33,423 nucleotides of DNA from assembly GCA_038883795.1 (NCBI GenBank), contig JAVZLK010000016.1:1-33423 (forward strand), read 5' to 3'. The DNA comes from Candidatus Bathyarchaeia archaeon (GTDB taxonomy: Archaea > Thermoproteota > Bathyarchaeia > Bathyarchaeales > Bathycorpusculaceae). The translations under genes and the position numbers were made by a program. The notes below the pieces were generated by a model that saw nothing but the letters and a program-made list of their open reading frames with translations, was not told the DNA's origin and did not search any database. Positions 1-32,425 of the stretch are shown piece by piece (position 1 is the first letter of the stretch; every line of letters begins with the position of its first letter).

Positions 1-833
1 GAGTCAGCACAGGTAACGAAGCCGTCACAACCCTGAACGACTTTCTAGAGTACTTTGTAGGTGATCCTGAAACAAACGTAATTGCAATGTATATTGAACA
101 AGTAAGGAACGGAAAAAGATTCATAGAAATTTGTAGGTCTACAACTAAGCCGCTTGTCGCCCTTAAAATCGGTAAGACTGAGATAGGTAGGTTAGCCGCT
201 AAGTCACATACAGCCGCACTGGCTGGTTCTATTGAAGTGTGGAACTCCGTTTGCAGATACGCTGGAATAATCCAAGCTAACACTTTTGAACAACTCTACG
301 ATTTCTCCATGGCTTTAGCCTCGCCCCTGAAACCACGAGGTCGCAATGTTGGAATAGTCACAGCTCCGGGTGGGCCGTCCGTGATCGCAACAGATATGTG
401 TGGTGAACATGGATTAGCAATTCCTCGACTAAGTAGCGCAAGCATCGATAAGCTCAAAAGTATGCTTCCACCGTTCGCATCCATGGCAAATCCGATAGAT
501 ATGACAGCATCAGCACTCGAAGACTTAAGTATTTACCATAAAGTTTTAGAGGTTGTCGCATCAGATCAAAATGTGGATGTAATTTTAGTTATTTCCCCTC
601 TAACGCACCACCTAGAAATAGCCCAAACCACTGCAAACATTGCCAATGAAATTCGAAAACCAGTCGTAGTGGCTTGGACCGGGCTTCTCAACATTGTAGA
701 GCTTATTAAAGCCATGCGTTTTCTAGGCGAAAGAGGGATACCTAACTATTTTATGCCAGAAAGGGCTGTCGAAGCAATAGCAGTTATGTTGCATCAAACT
801 CAATTGGAAGCTACTAAACCCTGCGCTTCGTAG
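1..833 (+). CDS. acdA: ADP-forming acyl-CoA synthetase (acetate--CoA ligase) alpha subunit, 5'-truncated by window edge
   Basis: The frame is open from position 3 (VSTGNEAVTTLNDFLEYFVGDPETNVIAMYIE, typical of ACD-alpha), so ATG 87 is not the true start. Also has the phospho-His motif AAKSHTAALAGS, a GGPSV loop and NPIDMT, and a beta-subunit gene follows. Confidence 0.9.
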   Translation, partial: VSTGNEAVTTLNDFLEYFVGDPETNVIAMYIEQVRNGKRFIEICRSTTKPLVALKIGKTEIGRLAAKSHTAALAGSIEVWNSVCRYAGIIQANTFEQLYDFSMALASPLKPRGRNVGIVTAPGGPSVIATDMCGEHGLAIPRLSSASIDKLKSMLPPFASMANPIDMTASALEDLSIYHKVLEVVASDQNVDVILVISPLTHHLEIAQTTANIANEIRKPVVVAWTGLLNIVELIKAMRFLGERGIPNYFMPERAVEAIAVMLHQTQLEATKPCAS

Positions 834-848
834 ACATGGAGGAATTAT

Positions 849-1565
849 TTGACCATGAGTCATATAATTAGCCAGGCATTAAAAGAAGGCAGAAACCTTT
901 TATTGGAGCCCGAGGCTAAAAAGTTATGTTCACTTTATGGAATACCAGTACCACAGTACGCAGTAGTGTCAACAGTCGACGAGGCTGTAAAGGCTGCTAA
1001 AGGCATAGGTTTTCCAGTAGTTCTAAAAATAGTCTCCAAAGACATAATTCATAAGAGCGACTCTGGGTGCGTAGTTTTAAATATTAACAGCAGCGAAGAG
1101 GTTGAAAGAGCCTTCAAGTATGTGGTAGCCAACGCCTCAAAAGTTGGCTCCAACGTTGAAATAAAGGGTGTGCTTATAGAGGAAATGTTGCCAAAAGGTT
1201 TAGAGGTGGCTGTTGGGGCCCTAGAAGACGCAGAGTTCGGTCCAATAGTGATGTTTGGATTAGGAGGAATATTCATCGAAGTGTTGAGAGATGTCACTTT
1301 CAGAGCAGCACCAATAACCATAGACGAAGCTAAGAAAATGATGAAGGAAGTGAAAGGATACAAACTATTAGAGGGGTACAGAGGGCAAGAACCGGCTGAT
1401 ACAAATGCGCTGGCGAAAATAATCACAGCTGTTTCCCGACTCATAATAGAAAACAAAGAGATATGCCAAATAGACTTAAATCCTGTTATTGTATGGCGGA
1501 ACGGCGCAAAAATCGCAGATGCAAGAATATTACTGAGCGGCAATGCTAATAATAATGATGCCTAG
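849..1565 (+). CDS. acdB: ADP-forming acyl-CoA synthetase beta subunit (ATP-grasp)
   Basis: LLEPEAK, IGFPVVLKIVS..IIHKSDSG, FGPIVMFGLGGIFIEVLRDVTFR and DLNPV..ADARI motifs. GGAGG at 838-842. Start is TTG 849 or ATG 855. Confidence 0.92.
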   Translation: MTMSHIISQALKEGRNLLLEPEAKKLCSLYGIPVPQYAVVSTVDEAVKAAKGIGFPVVLKIVSKDIIHKSDSGCVVLNINSSEEVERAFKYVVANASKVGSNVEIKGVLIEEMLPKGLEVAVGALEDAEFGPIVMFGLGGIFIEVLRDVTFRAAPITIDEAKKMMKEVKGYKLLEGYRGQEPADTNALAKIITAVSRLIIENKEICQIDLNPVIVWRNGAKIADARILLSGNANNNDA

Positions 1566-1677
1566 AGTGAAAGCTATGGAATATTATTTGCAGTATCTTA
1601 ATTCCTAATCTCAAAGGCGGCCTTTTAGGTATTTTTCAAGTTTTCATCCGTGTTATTTGGTTCTTATAAAATGGGGG

Positions 1678-1697
1678 CAAAGGTTAAATATATTTAA
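1678..1697 (+). promoter_or_regulatory. Putative archaeal BRE/TATA promoter of ABC operon 1, within a 14-bp palindrome
   Basis: CAAAGG followed by TTAAATATATTTAA (1684-1697, a perfect palindrome), about 30-40 nt upstream of ATG 1725. Confidence 0.5.
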
Positions 1698-1724
1698 GCT
1701 TGATTCTTATAAAGGGGGTTTTTC

Positions 1725-3053
1725 ATGTCAAAGAAGGCTCTGACAAAAATGCATGTTCTCATAATCGTTGTCATACTTGTGGTGGCTATTGTTGTCGGGA
1801 TTGCTTATTACCTGCTAACCCAACCGCAGGCAGTAGTTGAAGAGATACGCATAGGCACCGTGCAACAATTAAGTGGGCCTCTAGCTGTGCTGGGGCAATA
1901 TGGCCTTGTAGGGATACAAATTGGTGTAAAGTGGATAAATGACAAAGGAGGCGTAAATTTTCAAGGCAGAAAAATACCTGTGAGTTTAATATACTATGAC
2001 TGCGAGTCAAACATGGATTATGCCATCAAGTATGCTGAGAAACTAATCACCGAAGACAGAGTGCACTTCTTTGTACCAGCGTGGACACCAGATTTCGTAT
2101 TAGCTACTGTTCCGGTGGCTGAAAAACACAAAATCGTCTCAATAAGCCCGTGTGGAGGTGCTGATGTAGAGTACCAACAAGGCTTTAAATACATGATACA
2201 ATTCGGCATTCATGGATCAACGCATTTTGCAGTAGCGCTTAAAATGATACATGAACTGGATCCTACTGCTAAGAAAATTGCTTTCATAATGAGCTCAGCT
2301 GACCCGGGTGGAGTATTTCGGATATCAGTGCAAAATGCTGTAGCAAAATATAGGTTTGAATTAGTCTATGATAAAACATATCCAGAGGATATTACTGACG
2401 CATCAACTTTACTTATGGAAGCAGCTGCATCAGGAGCAGATATATTTGTCGGCGGCACCTTTCCGCAGAGTGGTATGCTGGTGGCTCAGCAGCTTAAAGA
2501 TTTGAGAATATACTTCAAGTGGGTTATGCTGGACATGGTTGTTAATAAAGTGGAATTTGGACAAACATTAGGTAAATACGCTGTCGGTTTCTTATTGGAC
2601 TCACCATATGAGCCTGAAGCTAAATGGGAGACTTGGGCTGCAAAGGAAGGAAAGGAGTACATAGGCCCTACAAACGATGAGATTTTAACGTATTTCCGCA
2701 ATATGGGCCACACGGAAAGAATTAGGACAGAAACGGGAATAGGTGTTACTGCACCAGTAATTATGGCTAAATGCATAGAAGTAGCCCAAAGTCTAGATCC
2801 AGACGAAATAATAAAAGCAGCTTTGTCGCTTGACGTATACACCTGCAAAGGAAGGTTCAAACTGGATCCCACGAATCCAGCGCATCAGATAGGACTCGAG
2901 GGTAACCCTGTGGTTATGCAGTGGCAAAAGAAAGATAATAAACTCGTATATGCGATAGTGTACCCGCTTGACTTCAAAAATTCTGACTTGATTCCTATGC
3001 CAACATGGGAAGAAAAAGATTCATGGCCGGAATTGACGTTAGAAATCTCCTGA
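1725..3053 (+). CDS. ABC transporter substrate-binding protein, LivK/PBP1 type, with class III-like signal peptide
   Basis: N-terminal KKALTK plus a long hydrophobic helix; IRIGTVQQLSGPLA, INDKGG and YYDCES motifs; heads a LivH/M/G/F operon. Confidence 0.88.
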   Translation: MSKKALTKMHVLIIVVILVVAIVVGIAYYLLTQPQAVVEEIRIGTVQQLSGPLAVLGQYGLVGIQIGVKWINDKGGVNFQGRKIPVSLIYYDCESNMDYAIKYAEKLITEDRVHFFVPAWTPDFVLATVPVAEKHKIVSISPCGGADVEYQQGFKYMIQFGIHGSTHFAVALKMIHELDPTAKKIAFIMSSADPGGVFRISVQNAVAKYRFELVYDKTYPEDITDASTLLMEAAASGADIFVGGTFPQSGMLVAQQLKDLRIYFKWVMLDMVVNKVEFGQTLGKYAVGFLLDSPYEPEAKWETWAAKEGKEYIGPTNDEILTYFRNMGHTERIRTETGIGVTAPVIMAKCIEVAQSLDPDEIIKAALSLDVYTCKGRFKLDPTNPAHQIGLEGNPVVMQWQKKDNKLVYAIVYPLDFKNSDLIPMPTWEEKDSWPELTLEIS

Positions 3054-3071
3054 TTTTTCTCTCTTTTTATT
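3054..3071 (+). terminator. Oligo-T tract after binding-protein gene (possible leaky archaeal terminator)
   Basis: TTTTTCTCTCTTTTTATT directly after the stop codon; the paralogous operon has a T-rich tract at the same position. Confidence 0.4.
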
Positions 3072-3092
3072 AATGAGGAGGTGAGGTTTAAA

Positions 3093-3977
3093 ATGCTTGA
3101 ATTTTTTGTTCAAGCGCTAATCAGTGGTTTTATTTCGGGAGCTGTTTATGGTTTAGCAACCATGGGTTTAAATTTAATATTTGGCGTTATGAATGTGACC
3201 AACTTCGCCCACGGTGACCTTTTGACGCTTGGGGCTTATACTGCTTACTGGCTATGGATTTTTTTATCATTAAATCCCGTATCCAGTATACCCATATCCG
3301 CGTTGGTGGGATTTATGATTGGGTTATTTCTTTTCTACGCTGTTATTAACAAGCTGGTCTTCTCTCCGGATGCTGCGTTAGTTGCAACATATGCTCTTGC
3401 AGTTTTCCTTGAAGAAATCATGAGAATTTTGTGGACTCCACTCAATCGTGGAATTCCATGGAGTTTAGGAACCATCCAGTATTCCTTTATAACCATACCA
3501 GTCACTTATATAATCACTTTTTTGTCTTGTCTTATCACATTTGCAGCGATATACCTCGTATTGTATAAAACATACTTTGGTAAATCGCTTCGAGGAATAA
3601 TCTGGGATTCCGAAGCAGCAGCTATCTGTGGCGTAAACGTTAAAAATACATTAGCTTGCGGTTTTGCAGTAGGTGTCATGCTTGCGGTCGTTGGAGGAAC
3701 CCTCTTAATAGTCTATACTCCCTCCGGTATAAACCCTTATATGGGCCAAACATATATGCTTAAATGTTTTTTGATAGCTGTTTTGGGCGGTCTTGGCAAT
3801 CCATGGGGTGCCTTAATTGGCGGCTTAATTTTGGGTGAACTCGAACAGTTTTTACCCTTAATCTTAAATTACATCCCTGGAATTGAACCTTACGCATTTA
3901 CGCCATTTATAAATTTTGTAATCTTCGTAATGGTGTTACTTGTTAGACCTCACGGAATATTTGGAGGCAAAAAATAA
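3093..3977 (+). CDS. livH: ABC transporter permease, LivH type
   Basis: YGLATMGLNLIFGVMNVTNFAHGD, TYFGKSLRG..DSEAAAICGVN and LGGLGNPWGALIGG. ATG 3093 preferred because GTG 3081 lies inside the RBS-like GAGGAGGTGAGG. Confidence 0.9.
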   Translation: MLEFFVQALISGFISGAVYGLATMGLNLIFGVMNVTNFAHGDLLTLGAYTAYWLWIFLSLNPVSSIPISALVGFMIGLFLFYAVINKLVFSPDAALVATYALAVFLEEIMRILWTPLNRGIPWSLGTIQYSFITIPVTYIITFLSCLITFAAIYLVLYKTYFGKSLRGIIWDSEAAAICGVNVKNTLACGFAVGVMLAVVGGTLLIVYTPSGINPYMGQTYMLKCFLIAVLGGLGNPWGALIGGLILGELEQFLPLILNYIPGIEPYAFTPFINFVIFVMVLLVRPHGIFGGKK

Positions 3978-4922
3978 ATGTTCGGTGCAAACAAACGCTA
4001 TACGTACACGTGGATGATAGTTTATGCTTTTCTAATACTGTTATCCTTGACTTCTGGTGGGTACGCGGAGGTCGTGTACAACATTGCTTTCCTAATGGTT
4101 CTTTCTCAGTCTTTAAATATCGCCATGGGCTTTGGCGGGTTAGTAAACCTAGGTTTTGTTTCTTTCTTAGGTGTTGGAGCATATGTCTTTGCTGTTTTAG
4201 TTGTATATGGTTTGAATCCATATCTTTCGATGCTTACTGGTGGATTCGTTGCAATAATAGTAGCTTTACCCATTGGAATGGTTGTACTTAGACTTAGGGG
4301 TCCCTTCTTTGCCATATGTACTTTAAGCTTGATATTTGCAGCAAAATATTTCTTTTTAGGAACAGGAATCGGCGGCGGATACTACGGAATTACTCTGTAC
4401 AAGTATATAGGTTCATTATACAACAATTATGTGCTTGCATACATTTTATTGGCTCTCTCGGCTGTTCTTACTATGCTGACAAACAAGTTAAGAAGATCCT
4501 CACTTGGCTATTCACTTATGGCGATAAGGGAGGATGAAGATACTGCCCAAACCATGGGTGTTGATACTTTCAAATCTAAACTAATTGCATATGCAATAAG
4601 CGCATTCTTTCCAGGAATCGTAGGAGGAGTCTTTGCATTTAAAATTTTTTGGGTTTTGCCTGACAGGGTATTTAACCCTTTTGTGACAATTGAAGCTGTA
4701 CTTACTCTTCTAATGGGAGGTGCTGGATCTGTAACGGGACCGTTGATTGGAGCTTTAATATACGAACTTATGAAGGACACACTCCTAAGAATTCCAGGGC
4801 TTCAGGGAATGCAGATGCCGATTTTTGGAATTTTAGTCATAATTATTGCTATTTCAGCCCCTCAAGGTGTTGTGGGATTAATTAAAAGCAAGTATAGAAA
4901 ACTGCAAGATTTTATCATTTAG
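3978..4922 (+). CDS. livM: ABC transporter permease, LivM type
   Basis: LNIAMGFGGLVNLG..FLGVGAY, LRLRGPFFAICTL, AIREDEDTAQTMGV and GGAGSVTGPLIGA. Confidence 0.9.
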   Translation: MFGANKRYTYTWMIVYAFLILLSLTSGGYAEVVYNIAFLMVLSQSLNIAMGFGGLVNLGFVSFLGVGAYVFAVLVVYGLNPYLSMLTGGFVAIIVALPIGMVVLRLRGPFFAICTLSLIFAAKYFFLGTGIGGGYYGITLYKYIGSLYNNYVLAYILLALSAVLTMLTNKLRRSSLGYSLMAIREDEDTAQTMGVDTFKSKLIAYAISAFFPGIVGGVFAFKIFWVLPDRVFNPFVTIEAVLTLLMGGAGSVTGPLIGALIYELMKDTLLRIPGLQGMQMPIFGILVIIIAISAPQGVVGLIKSKYRKLQDFII

Positions 4923-4931
4923 GTGAAAAGT

Positions 4932-5687
4932 ATGGTGCTTCTAGACTTAGAAGGAATAACTAAGAGATTCGGCGGCGTAACTGCTCTACAAAATGTCACT
5001 TTGCAAGTCAATAAAAACGAAATTTTAGGATTAATTGGCCCAAATGGTTCAGGGAAAACAACCCTCATCAATGTTATTAGTGGGGTGTATAAGCCAGACG
5101 CAGGCAGAATAAAATACAAAGACATGGATATCACCACCGTTCCGCCCCATTTAAGATGTCGCATGGGTATTGCAAGGACATACCAAGTTACACGTCCGTT
5201 TAGCAACTTAAAGGTTCTTGAAAACGTGGTCATCAGTGTTTTAAACGGTAAAAGATGTGGCAAAGTATCGGTAAGCGAAGCTGAAAAAATTGCTGAAAAC
5301 ATTCTTGAAACTTTAGGGTTAAGTAAAATGAAGGAACTTCCGGCTAGATCATTAAACGCTCAAGGAAGGAAAAAAATGGAGATAGCAAGGGCTATTGGAG
5401 TGGACCCTGAACTGCTGCTTCTTGATGAATGCTTAGCAGGATTAGCGCCTTCCGAGATTGCAGAGATGCTTAAAATAATTCAGGAAATCAAAAATGAAAG
5501 AAACATGACAATTATTATGATAGAACATTTAATGCATGCTGTAATGAACATCTCTGATAGAGTTGCTGTTCTTCACGAAGGTCGCTTAATAGCGGAGGGG
5601 AAACCGGAAGAAATAGCGAAGGACGTTAACGTTGCAGAGGTTTACTTCGGTGATCGTGAATTGGCTCTGAAGCTTGTCAAAAGGTGA
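4932..5687 (+). CDS. livG: ABC transporter ATP-binding protein, LivG type
   Basis: KRFGGVTAL, Walker A GPNGSGKTT, GIARTYQ, Walker B LLLLDE and IEH switch. ATG 4932 follows an AGGTGA RBS (track start GTG 4923). Confidence 0.92.
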   Translation: MVLLDLEGITKRFGGVTALQNVTLQVNKNEILGLIGPNGSGKTTLINVISGVYKPDAGRIKYKDMDITTVPPHLRCRMGIARTYQVTRPFSNLKVLENVVISVLNGKRCGKVSVSEAEKIAENILETLGLSKMKELPARSLNAQGRKKMEIARAIGVDPELLLLDECLAGLAPSEIAEMLKIIQEIKNERNMTIIMIEHLMHAVMNISDRVAVLHEGRLIAEGKPEEIAKDVNVAEVYFGDRELALKLVKR

Positions 5688-5691
5688 TAAA

Positions 5692-6396
5692 ATGCTCAAA
5701 ATTGAAAAACTGGAGGGAGGATACAAAGATTTTAAGGTGCTTAATAACATTAACCTTCAGGTGGAAAAAGGTAGCGTAACCTGTCTTCTTGGACCGAATG
5801 GGGCGGGAAAGACGACAACGTTGAAGACAATAATAGGTTTGTTAAAGCCTTGGAGTGGAGTTATTGAGTTTGATGGAGCTAATATCACTGGTAAGCAACC
5901 GCATGAAATAGTGAAACTGGGTATAGGCATAGTTCCTGAAGGTAGAAGAATTTTTGGCAACATGACTGTTCAAGAAAACTTGGAAATGGGTGCTTATATA
6001 AAAGGTGCAAGAAAGAAATTTAATGATAGACTAGAATGGGTGTATAGCCTCTTCCCAATATTAAAGAAGAGGAAAAACCAAAATGCGGCAACGTTGAGCG
6101 GTGGTGAACAACAGATGCTGGCTATCGCAAGAGCCCTCATAATTAACCCTAAACTATTACTTTTAGACGAACCAAGCCTAGGGTTAGCTCCAAAAGTAGC
6201 GCAAGAAATTTTGAACGTGGCTAAAAAGCTTCAAGAAACAGGAATAACAATACTGCTTGTAGAACAAAACATTTACTTGGTAAACAAAGTCATGCATTAC
6301 GGGTACGTCATGGAAGGTGGAGCTACGGTTGCTAAGGGAACTTATGAAAATCTAATTAACAACCCGGTAGTTAAAAGGGTATATTTAGGGTTATAG
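5692..6396 (+). CDS. livF: ABC transporter ATP-binding protein, LivF type
   Basis: GPNGAGKTT, VPEGRRIF, LSGGEQQMLAIARAL, LLDEPSLGLAP and LLVEQN. ATG 5692 follows AGGTGA. Confidence 0.93.
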   Translation: MLKIEKLEGGYKDFKVLNNINLQVEKGSVTCLLGPNGAGKTTTLKTIIGLLKPWSGVIEFDGANITGKQPHEIVKLGIGIVPEGRRIFGNMTVQENLEMGAYIKGARKKFNDRLEWVYSLFPILKKRKNQNAATLSGGEQQMLAIARALIINPKLLLLDEPSLGLAPKVAQEILNVAKKLQETGITILLVEQNIYLVNKVMHYGYVMEGGATVAKGTYENLINNPVVKRVYLGL

Positions 6397-6466: not shown

Positions 6467-7600
6467 TCATACGATGTTCCCAATAAACTTCAAAAAAGTT
6501 TTACTAACTTCACTTGTTTGATCCTTATGCAAATTATCTATTCTTGCTCCCAATTTATGAATATCCATCTCCATTAAATCAAAACCACATAATGTAAGCT
6601 CCCCGGAAAAGAAGCTAAGCATTGATTGGAAAACATTTTGTATTTGTTCAAGAGACAATCCCACCGCATTTAGAAACCTTGCAGCATAGACGCAGGAAAG
6701 AGCACCTACATCAACGTCCATTGAAATGTAAACCCTCTTAGCGTTTAGGCTCCCTAAAGCCTCTTCTATAAGATTTTTTGCAGTCTTAGTCCTGCATAAG
6801 CTTGATCTAGGTACAAAATGGGCGCCCAACTTTTCTAGTGATCTGAAAAAGGCTTCGTATTCCTTTACAGAGGGGTCATTAATCTCTCCTAAATTTTCGG
6901 ACGGGTAATCTGAGTTCCCAATTACAACGAGGTTTTTTATATCTAGTATCCTATGATTTATTAGGTGAAGCAAGAAATTTTCTGCATCTACATGGCTATC
7001 TGGATTCTGATCGAACTTGCATGCTGTAAAACTACTCTGAGGATATACATCTGGTAATATAAATGGGATGTTTGATCTTTTTGCATAATCAAATAAATTT
7101 TGCCGCAATTTCGCTGGAATCGCATCAAAATGGCTGTCTAAAACGATGAGACCTAATTCTCTTTCTTGGTGTTTTCTTATAGCCAATATGGCACCATATG
7201 TGGAGGAATGATCTACACCAATCATTCCGGGCACTCTTGGAAAAACTTTGTTGACAATGAAATCACGAATTTCTATGGCGATTTTAAAACATCCATCGTT
7301 CCTAATAAATTTGGTGAATGAGCTAAAATCTAGTTTTCTTAAATCTTCAGGCGTAGGCTTAGGTCGCAACCATGTAGGAATTTGAATTTTCCCGAGCAAA
7401 GCTGTTTTTTTAAAAAAAACAGCCGGTAAATTTTCTGACACATAATCATATGGGTCTAAGTAATCTGGATAAACGATTGTTCCAGCCATCTTGGCTTGTA
7501 TGTATGCAAGCTTTATTAGAAGGGATTCTTGTGTGATAGTTGGATCAAAAGGCACACCGAATAAACCAATTTTTTTATATGTGTGCATATTCTTTCTCAT
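6467..7600 (-). CDS. Divergent ureohydrolase (arginase/agmatinase superfamily) dinuclear metallohydrolase
   Basis: GVPFD, GVDHSS (GGDHS-like), LDSHFD (DxHxD), SMDVDV (DxD) and GFDLME motifs, with long insertions. Confidence 0.75.
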   Translation of the reverse strand: MRKNMHTYKKIGLFGVPFDPTITQESLLIKLAYIQAKMAGTIVYPDYLDPYDYVSENLPAVFFKKTALLGKIQIPTWLRPKPTPEDLRKLDFSSFTKFIRNDGCFKIAIEIRDFIVNKVFPRVPGMIGVDHSSTYGAILAIRKHQERELGLIVLDSHFDAIPAKLRQNLFDYAKRSNIPFILPDVYPQSSFTACKFDQNPDSHVDAENFLLHLINHRILDIKNLVVIGNSDYPSENLGEINDPSVKEYEAFFRSLEKLGAHFVPRSSLCRTKTAKNLIEEALGSLNAKRVYISMDVDVGALSCVYAARFLNAVGLSLEQIQNVFQSMLSFFSGELTLCGFDLMEMDIHKLGARIDNLHKDQTSEVSKTFLKFIGNIV

Positions 7601-7639
7601 TAAATAAACAGATTGCTGGAACTTATTTTTTCTGTTAGT

Positions 7640-7654
7640 AAAAACTTAAATATA
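7640..7654 (+). promoter_or_regulatory. Putative BRE/TATA promoter for the 7694-10925 operon
   Basis: AAAAACTTAAATATA about 40-50 nt upstream of ATG 7694, in a divergent intergenic region. Confidence 0.45.
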
Positions 7655-7693
7655 GTGATGTTTTAAGATAAATTCGATCACTTGGTGGGTTAA

Positions 7694-8062
7694 ATGAAAA
7701 ATAAGTTGGAGTTTTTCTTTGGGAACGTTGCACGAAAAATTACTGAATACTTGGATGATGGTTGCAAACTTCTTATCACCGCTGGTGAAAAACATTACAC
7801 TTTGGAGATTCCGGAAAAAGGAAAAGTAAAAGTGCACGAGGGGAAAATGGATGCTGACGTGGAGATTATAGGTGACGAAAATGTGATTGCCGATTTATTT
7901 TCTTCAGTCACCATCGAAGAATTTGCTGACAAAATGTGCAAGTACGTTGCCCAAGGAAAGAAGCCCAGACTAAGAATCCTTATGGATAGAAATGTTGAAA
8001 ATATTAAAAAATTCATACGCACCTATTACATACCCTTACTAAAGTTGTATATAATAAGGTGA
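7694..8062 (+). CDS. Small protein, probable SCP2 (sterol carrier/lipid-binding) fold
   Basis: YTLEIPEKGKVKVHEGKMDADVEIIGDENVIADLF..VAQGKKPRL resembles the SCP2 pattern; first gene of the FAD/Fe-S operon. Confidence 0.55.
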   Translation: MKNKLEFFFGNVARKITEYLDDGCKLLITAGEKHYTLEIPEKGKVKVHEGKMDADVEIIGDENVIADLFSSVTIEEFADKMCKYVAQGKKPRLRILMDRNVENIKKFIRTYYIPLLKLYIIR

Positions 8063-9724: not shown

Positions 9725-9734
9725 AGGTGGAATT

Positions 9735-20536: not shown

Positions 20537-20566
20537 AGCACCTCTGTTTGTGGAAGACTGAATCAG

Positions 20567-22999: not shown

Positions 23000-23024
23000 G
23001 AGGGGGTGAAGATACCTGTACGAA

Positions 23025-23894: not shown

Positions 23895-23898
23895 AGAT

Positions 23899-24837: not shown

Positions 24838-24846
24838 GTGAATACG

Positions 24847-25608
24847 ATGACCATCTTACTTGAAATTAAGGACGTAATTAAAAGATTTGGTGGCATAGTA
24901 GCTTTAAATAATGTTTCGTTGTGCGTAAATGAAAAAGAAATAGTAGGTTTGATTGGACCTAATGGTTCAGGAAAAACAACACTAATTAATGTAATTAGCG
25001 GGCTGTATAAGCCTGACTCTGGCAAGATAATCTTTAAAGGCGTGGATATTAGCAAAATCCCTGCTTATTTAAGATGTCGCATGGGAATTTCAAGAACCTA
25101 TCAAATAACCCGTCTATTTGGTAGACTGACCGCGCTTGAAAATGTTGTAGTAAGTGTACTTAACAGCGAACGCCATGGTAAAATTTCAGTAGCACAGGCC
25201 AAACATGTAGCCAATGATATACTTATGACTTTAGGGTTGGAAAAAATAAAAAACACATACGCAAAATTGTTAACTGCGCCGCAAAGAAGATTGCTAGAAA
25301 TCGCTAGGGCAGTGGGTGGAAACCCTGAACTCCTATTACTTGATGAATGTGTTACCGGACTAACCCCTTCAGAAACTCTTGAGGTTCTTGATGCTATCAA
25401 AAAAATTAGTCGGGAAAGAGAAATTTCTATAATCATGGTTGAGCATGTAATGCATGCGGTAATGAGCGTATCCGATAGAGTGATTGTCCTTCATGAGGGA
25501 AAAAAGATAGCTGAAGGCTCACCAAAGGAAATAGCAGAAAGTGAAAAAGTTGCTGAAGTATATTTTGGGGATCGCGAAATAGCATTAGGCTTTTTGAGGG
25601 AGATGTAA
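24847..25608 (+). CDS. livG: ABC transporter ATP-binding protein, LivG type
   Basis: KRFGGIVAL, GPNGSGKTT, GISRTYQ, LLLLDE and VEH. ATG 24847 follows AGGTGA (track start GTG 24838). Confidence 0.92.
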   Translation: MTILLEIKDVIKRFGGIVALNNVSLCVNEKEIVGLIGPNGSGKTTLINVISGLYKPDSGKIIFKGVDISKIPAYLRCRMGISRTYQITRLFGRLTALENVVVSVLNSERHGKISVAQAKHVANDILMTLGLEKIKNTYAKLLTAPQRRLLEIARAVGGNPELLLLDECVTGLTPSETLEVLDAIKKISREREISIIMVEHVMHAVMSVSDRVIVLHEGKKIAEGSPKEIAESEKVAEVYFGDREIALGFLREM

Positions 25609-25612
25609 GACC

Positions 25613-26335
25613 TTGCCAGAAGAAATTTTACTGGAGGCTAAAGAAATAGAAGGAGGATACGGAGATTTTAAAGTCCTCCACGGCCTTAGCTTTTGCGTTA
25701 AAAAAGGGAGTATAACATGTATTCTTGGTCCAAATGGTTCTGGGAAATCAACTATATTAAAAACAATAATCGGTGCGTTAACACCATGGAGTGGAACAAT
25801 TTTATGTGAAGGTGTTAACATAACTAATCTACCAGTCCACAAAAGAGTGAAAATGGGTATAGCATTAGTCCCGGAAGGAAGAAGAATTTTTGGTGACATG
25901 ACAGTAATTGAAAATTTAGAGATGGGTGCTTACTTAAAAGAAGCGCGAGTAAAATTTAATGAGATGTTGGAACGCGTTTTTTCTCTGTTTCCAGTCCTGA
26001 AAGAAAGAAAAGAGCAAAGGGCGTCATGCCTAAGTGGTGGTGAACAACAAATGTTGGCCATCGCGAGGGGTTTGTTAACTAACCCTAAATTGCTCATGAT
26101 CGATGAACCAAGCTTAGGATTATCCCCTAAATTAGCGCAAAACCTTATGAAAATGCTCGGTAAGCTTCGAGATGAAGAGGGACTAACAATTCTTCTAGTT
26201 GAGCAAAATATTTCTTTAACAAGGGAGATAATGGACTATGGCTATGTTTTAAGCGGTGGATTCATGATTGCAGAGGGGCAATTTAAAGATTTAGTTGGTA
26301 ATCACGAAGTCAAAAGAGCATATTTAGGACTGTAA
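25613..26335 (+). CDS. livF: ABC transporter ATP-binding protein, LivF type
   Basis: GPNGSGKST, VPEGRRIF, LSGGEQQMLAIARGL, DEPSLGL and LLVEQN. Confidence 0.93.
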   Translation: MPEEILLEAKEIEGGYGDFKVLHGLSFCVKKGSITCILGPNGSGKSTILKTIIGALTPWSGTILCEGVNITNLPVHKRVKMGIALVPEGRRIFGDMTVIENLEMGAYLKEARVKFNEMLERVFSLFPVLKERKEQRASCLSGGEQQMLAIARGLLTNPKLLMIDEPSLGLSPKLAQNLMKMLGKLRDEEGLTILLVEQNISLTREIMDYGYVLSGGFMIAEGQFKDLVGNHEVKRAYLGL

Positions 26336-26461: not shown

Positions 26462-27607
26462 ATGAGGGGTGTTGTTGTTTATTACTCCGCGAGTGGTAAT
26501 ACCCGTATTATTGCTAAAGCCATCCACCGTGGCATGAGCAAGATTATTGAGGCCGACATCTTCTCTGTTAAGGATGTTAGTCCGCGGATAATGGCAACAT
26601 ATGATTTGATAGGTATCGGCTCACCAGTATGGTTCTTCCGTGAGACTGCTAATATTAAGCGCTTTATCTATAATATGCCCAGAATGGACGGAAAATATTG
26701 TTTTATGTTCTGTACGCATGCAGAAGCCCCGTTCTGGATATTTACCTCGATGGCATCAACTCTTCAAAAGAAAGGCTTAACCGTTATCGATTGGGCAGAC
26801 TGGTATGGTGCGTCAAATATAGTTGCTCATATGCCTTGCCCAAGCCCGACTCATGGGCATCCTGACGAGGTAGATACCCGAGAAGCAGAAGATTTTGGTC
26901 GAAAAGCTGCTGAAAGGTTCCTGCAAATTGTTTCTGGTAGAACAGATTTAATACCAAAAATACCCAAAGGTAGAGAGGCACCCATGCAGTTCAAACCGCA
27001 TCCAATAGGGGAACCATTTCCTGGCACTCGATTGATAAGAAAGATAGACGTTAATAAATGTAGATATCCTTGGTGTAAATTATGTTTTGATATTTGCCCT
27101 GTTAAAGCTATAGATCCGTCAAAGAACCCTCCCATTTTTAGGGCAGACGCGTGTTGGAACTGTTCGTTGTGTAATAGACTGTGCCCGGTTGACGCGATAA
27201 AACTAGAACCGGAAGAAGTTGCGAGACGTTTAAGGCCTCAGTACGCTATAGATCTTTCTAAATGCACTTTTCCAGAATGCAAGTTGTGTGTTGAAAATTG
27301 TCCAATGGACTCAATAGACTTTACAACTAGGCCGCCAACATTCAAATATAACTGTGAGGGATGCGACTTATGCTGGGCTATATGTCCAAGTGGAGCGGTG
27401 GAAATAAAAAATTTGGCGGAGACTCATGGATTAATGGTTGAGAGAATGGAAAAGAGAGAAGGGGAACATGAATTCTTAAAGTTATTGGCCGAGGCCGAAG
27501 CTAAAGGGCGGTTCAGGCGATTAATACCAATTGAGAAAATAGACTGGACTAAACCGTTGTATAAGATCCAGAAGATTCCGCGTTTTATGCCTCCAGAGGA
27601 CCCTTAG
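26462..27607 (+). CDS. Flavodoxin domain fused to four [4Fe-4S] motifs (flavodoxin-polyferredoxin, EFR1-like)
   Basis: YYSASGNT FMN loop and YDLIGIGSPVW, then CRYPWCKLCFDICP, CWNCSLCNRLCP, CTFPECKLCVENCP and CEGCDLCWAICP. Confidence 0.87.
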   Translation: MRGVVVYYSASGNTRIIAKAIHRGMSKIIEADIFSVKDVSPRIMATYDLIGIGSPVWFFRETANIKRFIYNMPRMDGKYCFMFCTHAEAPFWIFTSMASTLQKKGLTVIDWADWYGASNIVAHMPCPSPTHGHPDEVDTREAEDFGRKAAERFLQIVSGRTDLIPKIPKGREAPMQFKPHPIGEPFPGTRLIRKIDVNKCRYPWCKLCFDICPVKAIDPSKNPPIFRADACWNCSLCNRLCPVDAIKLEPEEVARRLRPQYAIDLSKCTFPECKLCVENCPMDSIDFTTRPPTFKYNCEGCDLCWAICPSGAVEIKNLAETHGLMVERMEKREGEHEFLKLLAEAEAKGRFRRLIPIEKIDWTKPLYKIQKIPRFMPPEDP

Positions 27608-27682: not shown

Positions 27683-28579
27683 ATGAAATTTGGGATAAGT
27701 CATTCTCCTTTCCAATGGTGGACTAATAGTAGGCAACTTGAAGAATGGGTATTAAAAGTCGAGGAAATGGGATATGATGGACTTTTTGTTCCAGACCATT
27801 ATAGTCTCCCCTTATCACCTAAAAATCAATTAGTCGTGGATGCTTGGACCACCATCGTTTATATAGCGGCTAAATCTTCAAAAACTAGGATAGGAAGCAT
27901 CGTTACACCAGTGCCGAGATGGATCCCTAGCCAGTTGGCCAAAATTATCGCCTCTGCAGACATTTTATCAAATGGTAGAATCATAGCAGCGTTAGGCGCT
28001 GGTTGGTGTAGGGATGAATTTGTAAACTACGCCCCAAAAGGCGCTTTTGATTTTGACAATCCAAAAATCAGATTTGAGAAATTCCTCGAGGGTACAGAAA
28101 TTATGATCAAATTATGGACCGAGGAAAGTGTAACCTTTAAAGGAAAATATTATACATTAGAAGACGCTGTGCTTTACCCAAAACCCGTTCAGAAGCCTTA
28201 TCCACCTCTCTGGTGTGGTGGTCATCGGTCACAAATGATAAAGGCTGCAGCAAAATACTTTGACGGATGGATACCGTCTAAATTTGAGTTACCCGCAAAT
28301 TTTGGTTCATCATCTTCTACAATCACCTGCTCTGAGCAGTATAGAAGTCTCAAGAATAAAATTACAGAATATCTTCAAAAGTTCGGTAGGGATGTAAATA
28401 AGTTTACTTTTGGTCTTCTAGGCGAGATGCCTAGTGTTGAGTTACTTGAGAAATATAGGGACGCCGGGTGCCAATACTACGTATTCGATCTTGTTCCTCC
28501 GGGAAAACCAGTACCAAGTACACCTCAATGCATCGAGATAACAAAAAAGTTTGCTAAAGAAATTATTTCCTCTTTTTAA
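27683..28579 (+). CDS. Luciferase-like (LLM) flavin- or F420-dependent oxidoreductase
   Basis: GYDGLFVPDH, RIGSIVTP, LAKIIASADILSNGR..LGAGW..EF, PKPVQKPYPPLWCGG and DGWIP. Confidence 0.9.
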   Translation: MKFGISHSPFQWWTNSRQLEEWVLKVEEMGYDGLFVPDHYSLPLSPKNQLVVDAWTTIVYIAAKSSKTRIGSIVTPVPRWIPSQLAKIIASADILSNGRIIAALGAGWCRDEFVNYAPKGAFDFDNPKIRFEKFLEGTEIMIKLWTEESVTFKGKYYTLEDAVLYPKPVQKPYPPLWCGGHRSQMIKAAAKYFDGWIPSKFELPANFGSSSSTITCSEQYRSLKNKITEYLQKFGRDVNKFTFGLLGEMPSVELLEKYRDAGCQYYVFDLVPPGKPVPSTPQCIEITKKFAKEIISSF

Positions 28580-28701
28580 TTATCTGTGGCATTAATACTA
28601 TAAGCCTGGTTGCTCCACTTATACTCCGGTTAATTCTCTACAATGCACTCCTAGGTAAGTTTTAAATAAATTAATTATTGCAAAAAGAAACGGTGGTAGA
28701 A

Positions 28702-30669
28702 ATGTTTGATCATGTTTTTTCTCCTTTTAAGGTAAGGCATGTTGAACTTAAAAACAGAGTTGTAATGGCGCCTGTGGGCCATTGTTTGGCTTCCCCTAAT
28801 GGTTATGTTACGAGGGAGTTAATTGAATATTGTAAGAGATTGGCTAAGGGCGGGGCCGGGGTGATAGTTTTACCAGACAGTCCTGTAGATTTTGAGTATA
28901 GCAGGATGCCCGAATATCAACTGAACCTAGGCGACGATGGAATTATTGGTGGGCTAAGTTTACTTATCGAGGTGATCCATAGGTATGGGGCTAATGCGTC
29001 TATTCAGGTGAATCACAGCGGCAGGGTCGCTGATCCTAATATAATTCGTAAAGACCCAATAGCTCCATCTCCCATATCTCCAAAAATCGAAGATAAATGG
29101 CTTAGACAATTTTTCCCAAAAATGGGTTATAAAGTTGTTGAAATGACATATGAGCATATTAACACGGTTATACGTAGCTTTGCTGATGCATGTTATCGCT
29201 GTTTACGTGCGGGATTTGAGATGGTGATGATTCACGGGGCTCATGGTTGTCTTCTCGCCCAATTTGCCTCACCATATACGAATAGAAGAAGCGATTACTA
29301 TGGAGGTGACTTGGAGGGGAGGGCAGCATTTATCCTTGAGGTACTAGATGCCATTAGGTCAAAGGTGGGAAATAACCTTGTTCTACAGTATAGGATAAGT
29401 GCTGAAGAACTCGTGCCCAACGGGATGACCATAAATGATACAATAGACTTCATTAAGCTTATAGAGGATAAAATAGATATATTACATATATCAGCTGGCA
29501 TAGTATCTAACCCAGAGACCATATTTAAGGGTTTTGTCCCTGTTTTTCAGTCGCGAGGAGTGCATGTTAAATACGCTGAAAAAATAAGAGAAAACGTAAA
29601 AGTTCCACTTGCAGTTGTCGGTAACATGGACATAGAGTTAGCTGACAAATTAATAGGTGAAGGCATTATTGACTTAGTGGATATTGCTCGTCCCATATTA
29701 GCAGACCCGGATTACGTGAATAAACATATGGTGGGGAAGATTGATGATATAAGACCATGTGTAAGATGTAACTATTGTGGTTATAGGGTTAACCAAATGC
29801 TTCCAATAAGATGCTCAGTCAATCCAACCCTTGGAAGAGAGATAGAATATCCAGATATTCCGCCTGCAAAAGTTAAGAAGAAAGTAGTAGTTATCGGAGG
29901 CGGCCCCTCAGGATTAGAGGCTGCTTTAATAGCTGCTGAGAGAGGACACAAAGTCATCCTTTATGAGAAAGAGGAGAATCTTGGTGGAAACCTTAAGTGT
30001 GCGGCAGTACCGTCATTCAAAGGTGATCTAAAAAGTTTTCTAAATTGGTTAGTGAATAAGGTCACAAAGAACCCCAACATAGAGGTCCTGTTATCTACGG
30101 AGGCAACTCCTGAAAAAGTTAGAAATGAAAGCCCTGACGTAATTATTGTCGCAATTGGTTCTGAACCAGTCTATCCTCAGATTGAAGGAGCAGATAAAAA
30201 TAACGTTGTTTGGGCTGGAGATGTATTGCTTGGAAAAGCTGAAGTAGGCGAAAGAATTGTAATGTATGGTGTAAACTATGAAGGATGTGAGTCTGCATTG
30301 TTCGTGGCGCAGCAAGGAAAAAAGGTTGTATTAATCGATAACATAAATCCTCAACAAGTGCTTATGGACGTTGATGCGGCGATTAAAGCAGCCTTGTTAA
30401 GTATCTTACATCAGTATAATGTTAAATTTATACTAGAAGCCTGTATAAGGCAGATTACAGAGAACGAGCTTGTAGTGCTTGATAAGCATCGCTCTCAGCT
30501 TAGAATACCATTTGACACTTTTGTGTTTTCATTAGGCATGAGACCAAAGCCGGGTGCTGAGAATTATCACAGGCTATCAAGTGAAGTTTATATGGTTGGA
30601 GACTGTGTAAAACCCGGCAGATTAAACGATGCTATTCACCAAGCATTTAATGTAGCGGTTGAATTATAA
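28702..30669 (+). CDS. NADH:flavin oxidoreductase, OYE/enoate reductase class (FMN barrel, 4Fe-4S, FAD domain); Fcr/BaiCD-like architecture
   Basis: LKNRVVMAP, RLAKGGAG, IHGAHGCLLAQFASPYTNRRSDYYGG, CVRCNYC-x11-CSVNP and VVVIGGGPSG. ATG 28702 follows GGTGG (track start TTG 28678). Confidence 0.92.
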   Translation: MFDHVFSPFKVRHVELKNRVVMAPVGHCLASPNGYVTRELIEYCKRLAKGGAGVIVLPDSPVDFEYSRMPEYQLNLGDDGIIGGLSLLIEVIHRYGANASIQVNHSGRVADPNIIRKDPIAPSPISPKIEDKWLRQFFPKMGYKVVEMTYEHINTVIRSFADACYRCLRAGFEMVMIHGAHGCLLAQFASPYTNRRSDYYGGDLEGRAAFILEVLDAIRSKVGNNLVLQYRISAEELVPNGMTINDTIDFIKLIEDKIDILHISAGIVSNPETIFKGFVPVFQSRGVHVKYAEKIRENVKVPLAVVGNMDIELADKLIGEGIIDLVDIARPILADPDYVNKHMVGKIDDIRPCVRCNYCGYRVNQMLPIRCSVNPTLGREIEYPDIPPAKVKKKVVVIGGGPSGLEAALIAAERGHKVILYEKEENLGGNLKCAAVPSFKGDLKSFLNWLVNKVTKNPNIEVLLSTEATPEKVRNESPDVIIVAIGSEPVYPQIEGADKNNVVWAGDVLLGKAEVGERIVMYGVNYEGCESALFVAQQGKKVVLIDNINPQQVLMDVDAAIKAALLSILHQYNVKFILEACIRQITENELVVLDKHRSQLRIPFDTFVFSLGMRPKPGAENYHRLSSEVYMVGDCVKPGRLNDAIHQAFNVAVEL

Positions 30670-30719
30670 AGATTCTAAAGCTATCCTTTATTATTCATTC
30701 ATTTTTAGAAATTTAGTTT

Positions 30720-31592
30720 CTACTTGAACGATGGTATTACCTCTTCTGCAAATCTCCGTATTGCATCTATCTTATCCTTTGGATGAGATAAAATTGTAGT
30801 AATATCAATCACATAGTGTTGGCATCCGGCACGCACATACCGCTCGATGAGATTTATGTCATCATTTATCCATCCCAAAATGGCAAAAGTAAACTTATCC
30901 ACGCTTCGATTGTATTCTTGTAAATATTTTTTAATGACCTTCACCATACCTTCATATCTTTCTGGTGTAAGAACTCTTTCGCCATTGGGACGAGAACGGG
31001 GCGGTATCCAAGCATCGAAGTATTTTGCGGCTATTTTTAACATGGGGGCGCTCATTCCTCCAAGCCATAATGGTGGATGTGGTTTTTGTTTAGGTTTTGG
31101 AAGGAGAATCGCATCTCTAAGCCTATAATATTTTCCGTTAAATGTCACTTTATATTCGTGCCACAGCCTAATTATAATCTGAAGCCCCTCTAGAAATCTT
31201 CTTGTTCTCAGCTTTGGTTCATCAAGGTAACCTTGAGGAGAGTAATTGATGAATTCCTCGCGATACCATCCTGATCCGAATCCGGCTATGACTCTTCCCT
31301 CAGAGAGCACATCAACCATAGATATTATTTTGGCTATTTGACTAGGAATGTATCTAGGTATAGGTGTTACACATGATCCAATCCTTATTCGCTCAGTTAT
31401 AGCCGCCGTGAATGCTAATGTGGACCACGTATCCAATAAAGCGTTGGAAGGGAAATCTGGTGTCGGCAGATTGTAATGATCTGGAATAAAAATTGCATCG
31501 TACTCATGCCTTTCAATCTCAGATACCCATAGCTTAAAATTTTCAATACATCCCCACCAAGGATGTGGAGATGGAGATATACCAAATTTCAT
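30720..31592 (-). CDS. Luciferase-like (LLM) flavin- or F420-dependent oxidoreductase; paralog of 27683-28579
   Basis: MKFGIS start matches the paralog (track start ATG 31613); YDAIFIPDH, RIGSCVTP, DVLSEGR..GSGW..EF and PKPKQKPHPPLWLGG. Confidence 0.9.
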   Translation of the reverse strand: MKFGISPSPHPWWGCIENFKLWVSEIERHEYDAIFIPDHYNLPTPDFPSNALLDTWSTLAFTAAITERIRIGSCVTPIPRYIPSQIAKIISMVDVLSEGRVIAGFGSGWYREEFINYSPQGYLDEPKLRTRRFLEGLQIIIRLWHEYKVTFNGKYYRLRDAILLPKPKQKPHPPLWLGGMSAPMLKIAAKYFDAWIPPRSRPNGERVLTPERYEGMVKVIKKYLQEYNRSVDKFTFAILGWINDDINLIERYVRAGCQHYVIDITTILSHPKDKIDAIRRFAEEVIPSFK

Positions 31593-31752
31593 GAGGTCCA
31601 CTTCGTGCCTCATTAAGTTTGGTCTTTTTGTAGTCTTAAATTAATTAAAGTAAAGCAGTATTTAAATAAATGGTTGAAGGTAATTAAGCCTTTGAGTTAT
31701 ATGCTTACTCTACTGATTTTTAAATTTTGAAGCAAGATTTTACGTGTGTTTA

Positions 31753-31765
31753 GAAAATATATAAA
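31753..31765 (+). promoter_or_regulatory. Putative BRE/TATA promoter of the PhlG-like gene
   Basis: GAAAATATATAAA about 37-49 nt upstream of ATG 31802. Confidence 0.45.
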
Positions 31766-31801
31766 AATATCTTTGTTGCTTTTTCATTAAAGTGGAGTAA
31801 T

Positions 31802-32425
31802 ATGAAGGTGTGGATTGACGAGAACAGTTGTGTTCACATCGATTGGGAGCTTGATGGAGTTACCTCGAGGATGTTGAATTGGTGGTGGTGTAACATGGAG
31901 AAGGGTTTTGTTCTTTGGCATCCTAAGGAGCACAAAGGGTTATACTGGATCAAAAAACCTAAACATAATAATGCGATCGGCGCCATCCATATGGCGCCGC
32001 AGATTTGGTCTGACGGTACTCTTATTAAGCCATGCATAAGGTGGGAGGATGTGGAAAATCTTCCGGAGAAGATGCAGTCGTTGATAGTGTTTGACCATGC
32101 TGTTATCGCAGCCGCTATAAGTATTACAGGAGAAAATATTGTGGAGGATGCTCCACCCCTTGGCTATAGGATCCATCAATGGGAAGCAACTGATTTTGGT
32201 GTTAGGGGCAGATCTACTGCCATCCCTACAGAGACGGAACCAAAAGAAAGATTATTAAATATATGGGCTCCACACTGCAAGGAAGAAATCAGTAACTTTC
32301 AGGAATTCCTTCCACAACTTTATAAGTTATGGAGCGTCGTTAAGGATCCCGAAATAAGTCCATACTTTTCCTTTGAGGTAATGAGAGAAGGAGGCAAATT
32401 AAAATACAGACATAAGCAAAAATAG
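31802..32425 (+). CDS. DAPG hydrolase (PhlG) / phloretin hydrolase (Phy) family C-C hydrolase, compact form
   Basis: GVTSRMLNWWW (family GVTxxMxxWW), LWHPKEH (WHPxxH) and C-terminal HCKEE (HxxxE metal ligands). Confidence 0.78.
   Translation: MKVWIDENSCVHIDWELDGVTSRMLNWWWCNMEKGFVLWHPKEHKGLYWIKKPKHNNAIGAIHMAPQIWSDGTLIKPCIRWEDVENLPEKMQSLIVFDHAVIAAAISITGENIVEDAPPLGYRIHQWEATDFGVRGRSTAIPTETEPKERLLNIWAPHCKEEISNFQEFLPQLYKLWSVVKDPEISPYFSFEVMREGGKLKYRHKQK

Follow-up and report, generated by a model that had tools for sequence, protein, structure and literature searches.

A candidate accessory island with divergent relatives of bacterial flavonoid C-ring cleavage enzymes in a genome assigned to Bathyarchaeia

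Introduction

Anaerobic breakdown of flavonoids and tannin monomers bears on the persistence of polyphenols in anoxic soils and sediments. To our knowledge it is known only from bacteria. The described set for cleavage of the flavonoid C-ring comprises chalcone isomerase (CHI), the reductase Fcr or an enoate reductase, and phloretin hydrolase (Phy), and is represented in Eubacterium ramulus, Flavonifractor plautii, Clostridium butyricum and metagenome-assembled genomes (MAGs) of Holophaga and Sporomusales. The present analysis concerns a stretch of 33,423 nucleotides (the window) from a genome assigned to Bathyarchaeia, in which a CHI-like gene (20655-21404), an adjacent gene for an Fe-S flavoenzyme of the old yellow enzyme (OYE) family (18572-20536) and a gene related to the hydrolases PhlG and Phy (31802-32425) were found. 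The window is the entire contig C16 of its source genome. That genome spans 2.18 Mb in 81 contigs, with a completeness of 87% and an estimated contamination of 3.4%.

An operon-like unit of fcr and phy is described for C. butyricum in PMC11868195. Peptides of CHI, FCR and PHY from Holophaga and Sporomusales MAGs were detected in tannin-amended anoxic soil, according to PMC8084988. The window is like these systems in that one protein of each family is present and a reductase adjoins the CHI-like gene. It is unlike them in that its host is archaeal, the CHI-like and Phy-like genes are 10 kb apart and the two proteins are divergent. In the literature searched, archaea were not connected with CHI, Fcr or Phy in any paper, PMC11153144 (searched by term only) included; supplementary tables of polyphenol-annotation papers may list archaeal matches.

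The window is read here as an accessory catabolic island in a Bathyarchaeial genome, in which horizontally acquired relatives of bacterial anaerobic flavonoid C-ring cleavage enzymes lie among lineage-typical redox and transport genes. We regard this reading as evenly poised between right and wrong. What is new is that one archaeal genome holds a flavonoid-cleavage gene set of bacterial type, drawn from divergent subfamilies, for which a flavonoid function appears plausible from sequence. Even borrowed chemistry, if real, would widen the range of organisms that use polyphenol carbon and would add to the debate on Bathyarchaeia and plant-derived aromatics. The pairing of an uncharacterised CHI branch with PhlG/Phy-type proteins in many bacterial phyla points, independently of the archaeal host, to a widespread candidate enzyme pair.

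The chalcone-isomerase-like protein

By sequence and predicted fold, the 249-residue product of the CHI-like gene (minus strand) is a member of the bacterial-type CHI family and belongs to a shorter branch of it; CHI activity is a prediction. Pfam Chalcone_N (PF18232) matched residues 5-72 at 34.2 bits (cut-off 25). A phmmer search of the PDB returned E. ramulus CHI (3ZPH/4C9S) at an E-value of 9.3e-14 across both domains. Two blocks were aligned, residues 4-72 with CHI 8-76 (gap-free) and residues 104-238 with CHI 146-270. Within the gap-free block, H29 aligns with catalytic His33 of the E. ramulus enzyme, and R23, T67 and E68 align with R27, T71 and E72. At least 90% of 39 relatives retain H29, and the nine closest all have it. 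His33 is given as the catalytic base of E. ramulus CHI in PMC9694015.

The AlphaFold2 (AF2) model of the protein had a predicted local distance difference test (pLDDT) score of 88.6. The top matches in Foldseek were E. ramulus CHI entries, with template-modelling (TM) scores of 0.79-0.82 and E-values of about 1e-17, and the next unrelated fold scored a TM of 0.49. The two-domain ferredoxin-like fold is shared with the E. ramulus structures 3ZPH, 4C9S, 4D06 and 8B7R.

Low identity and a shortened lid region weaken the flavonoid reading of the protein. Identity to the characterised E. ramulus CHI is 22-24%. Between the aligned blocks there are 32 residues, against 70 in CHI (approximately 38 fewer, in the lid region), so the lid (CHI residues 106-130) is absent or much reduced; across this region the model consists of coil and one strand only. 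A lid-less variant of the E. ramulus enzyme stays active, according to PMC9694015. CHI His73 aligns with a glycine of the window protein, and no counterpart could be assigned to Asp79, Gln101 or Glu91. With PF18232, scores are 100-182 bits for canonical CHIs and 26-53 bits for the branch of the window protein; at 34.2 bits the protein therefore belongs to a distant, distinct branch. No characterised member of this shorter branch was found.

Attribution of the CHI peptides of PMC8084988 to the shorter branch was considered and rejected. The records of two bacterial loci that hold CHI-like genes of this branch (L048 and L052) are titled CTSoil_007 and CTSoil_082, which are MAG names of that study, but Holophaga genomes also hold a canonical CHI (181-182 bits). 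Since both a canonical CHI and a short-family member occur in Holophaga genomes, the peptides reported there are not assignable to the shorter branch, and they lend the flavonoid reading of the window no help.

The PhlG/Phy-like protein

The 207-residue product of 31802-32425 (plus strand) belongs, on profile and model comparisons, to the PhlG/Phy (DAPG hydrolase) superfamily as a short and divergent member with a predicted Bet v1-like fold, and is not a typical hydrolase of that superfamily. Pfam DAPG_hydrolase (PF18089) scored 27.4 bits (cut-off 22.7) over profile positions 187-223 only, the last 37. A single-sequence search of the PDB gave no match at E <= 10, and a six-frame search of the genome with PF18089 did not recover the gene at E <= 0.001. 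Searching 1.84 billion representative sequences yielded 192 relatives with E <= 0.001, of which 16 had E <= 1e-30. When a 15-sequence subgroup containing the protein was compared with 10 canonical members by hhalign, a probability of 98.9% and an E-value of 2e-17 were obtained over 163 columns. With a mixed profile, Phy (5XE5) was matched at 4.5e-41 and PhlG (3HWP) at 4.7e-33. The AF2 model (pLDDT 96.3) showed a Bet v1-like fold, for which the top Foldseek match was Phy 5XEY (TM 0.56-0.60, E 1e-6), with PhlG in seventh place. The earlier note on this DNA, made without database searches, had named the two open reading frames (ORFs) as CHI-like and PhlG-like; both family assignments held by profile, and in the structure searches members of the respective family were the top matches of both proteins.

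The protein shares with PhlG (3HWP) and with the phloretin hydrolase of Mycobacterium abscessus (5XEY/5XE5) the W-x-P-x-x-H and H-x-x-x-E motifs and probably the Bet v1-like catalytic domain. The zinc ligands of PhlG are His129, Glu160, His270 and Glu274, a numbering that fits chain 3hwp_A after an 8-residue offset. Three of the four positions are kept, as H44, H158 and E162. The position of Glu160 is occupied by Gln67 in an 'APQ' motif, which at least 90% of the 15 sequences in the subgroup share. Unlike PhlG and Phy, the protein has no 'INRLLEPGY' segment and no N-terminal domain: the N-terminal 50-70 residues are absent, giving 207 residues against 279-302. Generic Bet v1/START (SRPBCC) folds score nearly as well as Phy in Foldseek, and no reported activity was found for any member of the Gln-variant subgroup. 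The Gln at a ligand position, the missing N-terminal residues, the near-equal fold scores and the uncharacterised subgroup count against the flavonoid reading.

Gln67 and the near-equal scores of generic SRPBCC folds, together with the lack of a characterised member in the CHI-like branch, favour a rival reading of the island. Under it, the substrates would be non-flavonoid, for example aryl- or enoyl-CoA thioesters, hydroxycinnamates, 2-hydroxy acids or amino-acid-derived acids. The main work would be done by the OYE and fumarate-reductase-type flavoenzymes, an ADP-forming acyl-CoA synthetase (ACD), the Liv importers and a pyruvate/2-oxoacid:ferredoxin oxidoreductase (POR). The CHI-like protein (a dimeric alpha+beta barrel) and the PhlG-like protein (a Bet v1 fold) would act on unrelated small molecules, such as other acylphloroglucinols or polyketides, or would merely bind ligands. 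This is a serious contender to which we give roughly a one-in-three standing. Retention of the catalytic histidine in the one protein and of three of four metal ligands in the other speaks against it.

Pairing of the two families in bacteria

The conserved pairing of CHI-like and PhlG-like genes in bacteria is the strongest new support for a flavonoid role. In species-representative genomes 118 relatives of the CHI-like protein were confirmed, and the loci of the best 80 were compared; throughout, lineage names of homologues are the source databases' own labels. All 887 ORFs within 6 kb of a CHI-like gene were clustered without bias, and the commonest neighbour family was that of the window PhlG-like protein (20/80 loci, median distance 90 bp). 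By profile search, an ORF of the PhlG/Phy superfamily was present in 29/80 loci and within 500 bp in 23, often as two copies flanking the CHI-like gene; the profile was partly built from the same loci. The window-type PhlG-like protein was present in 12/80 loci. The pairing was replicated in a second, independent metagenome set, in which a PhlG/Phy-superfamily gene accompanied the CHI-like gene at 9/80 loci, or at 7/41 of those of at least 5 kb. At metagenome locus L158, a 57%-identical window-type PhlG-like gene lies directly before the CHI-like gene.

The only characterised CHI and PhlG/Phy members act on flavonoid or acylphloroglucinol skeletons, so this tight and repeated pairing is the best argument for such substrates, and it is hard to explain if the island handles non-flavonoid compounds. 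That rival does draw on the heterogeneity of the other neighbours of CHI-like genes in bacteria, which were LysR (14 loci), SDR (13), TetR/MerR (11), EthD (9) and AFOR (8). In the window itself, 10.4 kb separate the CHI-like gene from the PhlG-like gene on the opposite strand, which counts against the flavonoid reading.

At 20/80 loci the CHI-like gene had a neighbour of flavin ene-reductase type, be it an OYE, a fumarate-reductase-type or a FAD_binding_2 protein. Relatives of the fumarate-reductase-family flavoprotein of the window (11434-13185), at 25-31% identity, were present at 11/80, and relatives of its FAD_binding_2 flavoprotein (14547-16055) at 6/80, including L019. An OYE accompanies the CHI-like gene at only 4/80 loci, which counts against the flavonoid reading; at L036 and L061 it lies within 200 bp. 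The gene order at L061 is PhlG-like, CHI-like, OYE, back to back. L052 carries a sigma-54 activator, CHI-like, VOC, SDR, Zn-dependent alcohol dehydrogenase (Zn-ADH), MFS, SLH protein and OYE. All four families of the run that contains the CHI-like gene in the window (CHI-like, OYE, Zn-ADH and MFS) thus recur around the CHI-like gene of L052, with VOC and SDR in addition. The order at L019 is CHI paralogue, VOC, CHI-like, PhlG-like, FAD_binding_2, TRAP transporter. L061, L052 and L019 are the loci that resemble the window closely. The VOC gene directly follows the CHI-like gene at L052 and precedes it at L019.

Two CHI-family paralogues adjoin a window-type PhlG-like gene at L013, L019 and L073; the order at L013 is PhlG-like, CHI-like, CHI paralogue, SDR. 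The second paralogue in loci of this type is only approximately 29% identical to the window protein. The 4.3-Mb metagenome-derived chromosome OW818679.1 (L023, L035, L036, L055) holds at least four separate CHI-like paralogues, one of which adjoins an OYE Fe-S flavoenzyme.

The OYE-type reductases and the run around the CHI-like gene

The CHI-like gene heads a co-directional run of four genes (16178-21404, minus strand). It is followed by OYE no. 1 (18572-20536), a Zn-dependent alcohol dehydrogenase (17469-18488) and an MFS transporter (16178-17362), with gaps of 118, 83 and 106 nt. OYE no. 2 (28678-30669, alternative start 28702, plus strand) is 33% identical to OYE no. 1. Both proteins have an OYE/FMN domain (Pfam Oxidored_FMN), a CxxCxxCx11-12C motif and a FAD/NAD(P) domain (Pyr_redox_2). 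The four cysteines are C349/352/355/368 and C361/364/367/379, respectively.

By architecture and four-cysteine motif, the two enzymes are assigned to the FadH/Fcr class, with no tie to Fcr itself. The closest solved relatives of both were 2-naphthoyl-CoA reductase 6QKG (E 6.8e-76 and 1.4e-83) and the E. coli 2,4-dienoyl-CoA reductase FadH (1PS9), with which they share the three-cofactor architecture; this is a family-level match. The class assignment speaks for the flavonoid reading, whereas these relatives count against it and favour the view that the island acts on CoA thioesters or other non-flavonoid substrates. The closest comparable OYE, which lies beside the CHI-like gene at L052, is 34-37% identical to the window OYEs. 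The candidate Fcr proteins of PMC11868195 themselves share only 32-36% identity with the characterised Fcr; identity alone is therefore indecisive for an assignment to Fcr.

Assignment of either OYE as BaiCD, bilirubin reductase or mycofactocin OYE was rejected, since NCBIfam scores were 328-421 bits against cut-offs of 750-825. The NCBIfam equivalogs Tdh, TfrA/B, KstD and VprA were likewise rejected for window proteins, all being below cut-off.

Host and origin of the island

The host is archaeal and most probably of the Bathyarchaeia, as the earlier note had supposed. An archaeal small-subunit rRNA model scored 581.7 bits on contig C3 of the genome (a 16S fragment). The lineage marker of the contig itself is a nitroreductase-family gene in mid-window (13935-14510, plus strand). 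All its named homologues at 66-88% identity are labelled Bathyarchaeia, Bathyarchaeota, Bathyarchaeales, Nitrososphaerota or Bathycorpusculaceae, and bacterial homologues are at or below 58%. It is 68-73% identical to proteins in 4/4 same-genus genomes. OYE no. 1 shares 83% identity with a Bathyarchaeia-labelled protein encoded on a 48.6-kb contig and 55-56% with two further Bathyarchaeia-labelled proteins; with Chloroflexi-labelled proteins it shares 49-52%.

The contig, or the part of it that bears the CHI-like gene, could instead be mis-binned or chimeric bacterial DNA, for instance from Chloroflexota. We consider this very unlikely. In tetranucleotide make-up the contig correlates with the remaining genome at r = 0.933, the lowest of 28 contigs of at least 20 kb, and none of its ten 6-kb windows exceeds the 4.9th percentile of 162 core windows; this composition speaks for a foreign contig and against a Bathyarchaeial one. 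The bacterial labels of the CHI-like relatives and the distribution of the gene, given below, point the same way. The homologues of the nitroreductase and of OYE no. 1 argue against mis-binning. So do paralogues of window genes elsewhere in the genome: nitroreductase at 75% on C1 and POR at 77% on C2 (both core contigs), VOC at 70% on C28 and one luciferase-like protein (27683-28579) at 60.5% on C8. GC content is 0.403 in the window and 0.40-0.41 in the large contigs of the genome. The POR start is matched at 63-76% amino-acid identity in same-genus genomes, all four of which match both nitroreductase and POR.

In a DNA search of five relatives, matches were confined to the nitroreductase, POR and tRNA stretches, and the remaining window was unmatched. 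Synteny with same-genus genomes was compared over 1.5-kb flanks, and the neighbours of the nitroreductase differed from those in the window. On these sequence comparisons, we take the window to be an accessory island that is carried by a bathyarchaeon and has a mixed origin.

PF18232 was found in 1/401 sampled genomes of the phylum, namely the source genome alone (0/400 others), and the CHI-like gene in 0/40 close relatives; such rarity counts against the flavonoid reading. The PhlG/Phy superfamily profile was matched in 4/401 phylum genomes. FadH-class OYEs were present in 14/201 genomes of the order, all at or below 36% identity except the window's own. Neither PF18232 nor PF18089 was matched in 14 control genomes. 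Among the best 80 of 118 CHI-like loci, 76 carry bacterial names, the other four lie on one chromosome and none is archaeal. The named groups are Chloroflexota/Dehalococcoidia, Actinomycetota, Acidobacteriota including Holophaga foetida, Desulfobacterota-type MAGs, Pseudomonadota and Bacillota. A search of metagenome contigs with the single CHI-like protein confirmed none of 84 pattern matches. With a 9-sequence alignment, 80 loci were recovered, the closest at 58% identity on a 1.9-kb contig without informative neighbours.

Occurrence in 1/401 genomes, bacterial named relatives and atypical composition together indicate a horizontally acquired accessory island and not a conserved archaeal pathway. 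The CHI-like and PhlG-like genes look like a one-off acquisition from bacteria. The earlier note had proposed a candidate archaeal flavonoid pathway: the part that stands is the presence of divergent CHI and PhlG/Phy family members, and in place of an archaeal pathway the data suggest a single borrowing. Conserved co-occurrence across archaeal genomes, which that note had suggested looking for, was not observed in the samples above. Assignment of a donor lineage was attempted with a quick maximum-likelihood tree of 90 rows and rejected. The window protein stood on a long branch (0.48) in no well-supported clade; the nearest named branch, without support, was Dehalococcoidaceae, to which the mis-binning explanation could appeal.

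One public run (X1, labelled hot springs metagenome) carries the DNA, with 0.38 of sampled words; no RNA holder is listed. Contigs of this run, none longer than 534 nt, cover 28/30 bins of the window at approximately 2x depth and bear on neither contiguity nor expression. The label of this sole run weakens the link to plant-derived sediment carbon that had been suggested for the host.

Proposed reaction sequence

From the observed homologies and gene order, the archaeal host and the bacterial CHI-like/PhlG-like pairing, we infer the substrates, every catalytic step and the joint action of genes 10 kb apart as follows. A flavanone, flavanonol or related acyl-phloroglucinol-type polyphenol would be imported by the MFS carrier or by a LivK-type ABC system. 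The CHI-like protein would open the heterocyclic C-ring in a retro-oxa-Michael reaction with His29 as base. The adjacent FMN/[4Fe-4S]/FAD reductase of the FadH/Fcr class would saturate the enone, with electrons from NAD(P)H or from an EFR1-type flavodoxin-ferredoxin protein (26462-27607). The PhlG/Phy-like protein would then cleave the aryl-ketone C-C bond to phloroglucinol and a phenylpropionate. Phloroglucinol might be broken down by family-level candidates on other contigs, and the ACD (3-1565) could conserve energy from CoA thioesters.

A variant of this scheme is independent of the OYE-type reductase step. The shorter CHI-like protein and the Gln-variant PhlG-like protein without N-terminal domain would form a redox-neutral pair, converting a flavanone to the chalcone (a cinnamoyl-phloroglucinol) and this to phloroglucinol and a hydroxycinnamate. 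The hydroxycinnamate would serve as electron acceptor for the nearby fumarate-reductase-type or OYE flavoenzymes, and the module would have been acquired from bacteria and would give access to polyphenols under anoxia. We consider this variant rather unlikely.

Other genes of the window

All elements that the earlier note had named (the CHI-like gene, two OYEs, the PhlG-like gene, two LivK-type importers and the ACD) were recovered where that note had placed them, the ACD as a truncated gene. In the preferred reading of an accessory island with borrowed flavonoid-cleavage relatives, the genes described here would be its redox and transport complement. The ACD and POR flank the island, which is also a point in favour of the non-flavonoid reading.

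The ACD lies on the plus strand. The contig end truncates its alpha subunit, of which the C-terminal part (3-833) is present, and the beta (ATP-grasp) subunit follows (849-1565); Pfam Succ_CoA_lig, Ligase_CoA_2 and ATP-grasp_5 (265.6 bits) were matched. The NCBIfam models for acetate-, 4-hydroxybutyrate- and 3-hydroxypropionate-CoA ligase were all below cut-off. LivK-type ABC importer no. 1 (LivKHMGF; 1725-6396, plus strand) comprises a binding protein (Peripla_BP_6), two permeases (BPD_transp_2) and two ATPases (ABC_tran). Importer no. 2 (LivKHMGF by Pfam; 21608-26335, plus strand) is divergently oriented from the CHI-like run. Its subunits are 42-62% identical to those of no. 1. The region 6467-8062 encodes a 377-residue protein that matches the arginase family only weakly (53 bits), and holds a 122-residue ORF without Pfam or NCBIfam match.

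A GlcD-like FAD protein (Pfam FAD_binding_4) overlaps a CCG/4Fe-4S protein of the GlcF/TfrB/HdrD-like type (CCG and Fer4_8) at 8069-10925 (plus strand); the latter scored 115 bits with NCBIfam TfrB against a cut-off of 385. The fumarate-reductase-family flavoprotein (minus strand; FAD_binding_2 and Succ_DH_flav_C) is a possible ene-reductase. The FAD_binding_2 flavoprotein at 14547-16055 (plus strand; Pfam 153 bits) resembles KstD, flavocytochrome c and vinylphenol reductase, with all NCBIfam matches below cut-off. The flavodoxin-ferredoxin fusion of the EFR1 family (plus strand; NCBIfam EFR1 115.1 bits, cut-off 75; Pfam Fer4 and Flavodoxin) is a possible electron carrier.

A single-module VOC/glyoxalase-fold protein (Pfam Glyoxalase) is encoded at 13194-13754 (minus strand). 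Luciferase-like (F420-type) oxidoreductases are encoded at 27683-28579 (plus strand; Pfam Bac_luciferase, NCBIfam F420 LLM subfamilies below cut-off) and 30720-31613 (minus strand; Pfam/NCBIfam). None of these three proteins reached an NCBIfam dioxygenase or monooxygenase equivalog cut-off. The absence of a recognisable O2-dependent ring-cleavage enzyme, claimed earlier, was upheld at family level, with the VOC protein and the two luciferase-like oxidoreductases as the caveat.

A tRNA-Gly (CCC) gene (33030-33105, minus strand; ARAGORN, Rfam tRNA 66.5 bits) lies at the island edge between the PhlG-like gene and POR. Its best matches in the five relatives were approximately 87% identical. The start of the POR alpha subunit (33161-33421, plus strand; Pfam POR_N) is cut by the contig end.

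Candidate downstream genes elsewhere in the genome

Candidates for phloroglucinol breakdown all lie outside the window and are family-level matches only. Contig C8 holds a strong PhlG/Phy-family gene (C8:15888-16472; L005:9841-10497, minus strand), which scored 149-156 bits with PF18089 and matched Phy 5XEY at an E-value of 3e-17. Its product is 24% identical (E 5e-8) to the window PhlG-like protein. The same contig carries two cyclase-family genes, a 3-hydroxyacyl-CoA dehydrogenase-like gene, CoA transferases, a BKACE gene, two HpaB/AbfD-like genes and an Fe-ADH gene. One BKACE and one cyclase gene are added by contigs C15 and C49, giving genome totals of three cyclase-family and two BKACE genes. 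DPGC, TfD and TAL of the phloroglucinol pathway of Clostridium scatologenes, as described in PMC10470551, belong to the same families as these candidates. No phloroglucinol reductase (PGR) was identified in the genome, which detracts from a complete route.

Two further features of C8 were recorded. A pyruvate-formate-lyase-like glycyl-radical enzyme adjoins the PhlG/Phy gene of that contig (L005:10790-12922) and is present as two or three ORFs (392, 150 and 174 residues), split or frameshifted. A Cas1 gene and an IS110-family transposase gene (L109:12211-13251 and L109:16765-17811) hint that the region is mobile or rearranged.

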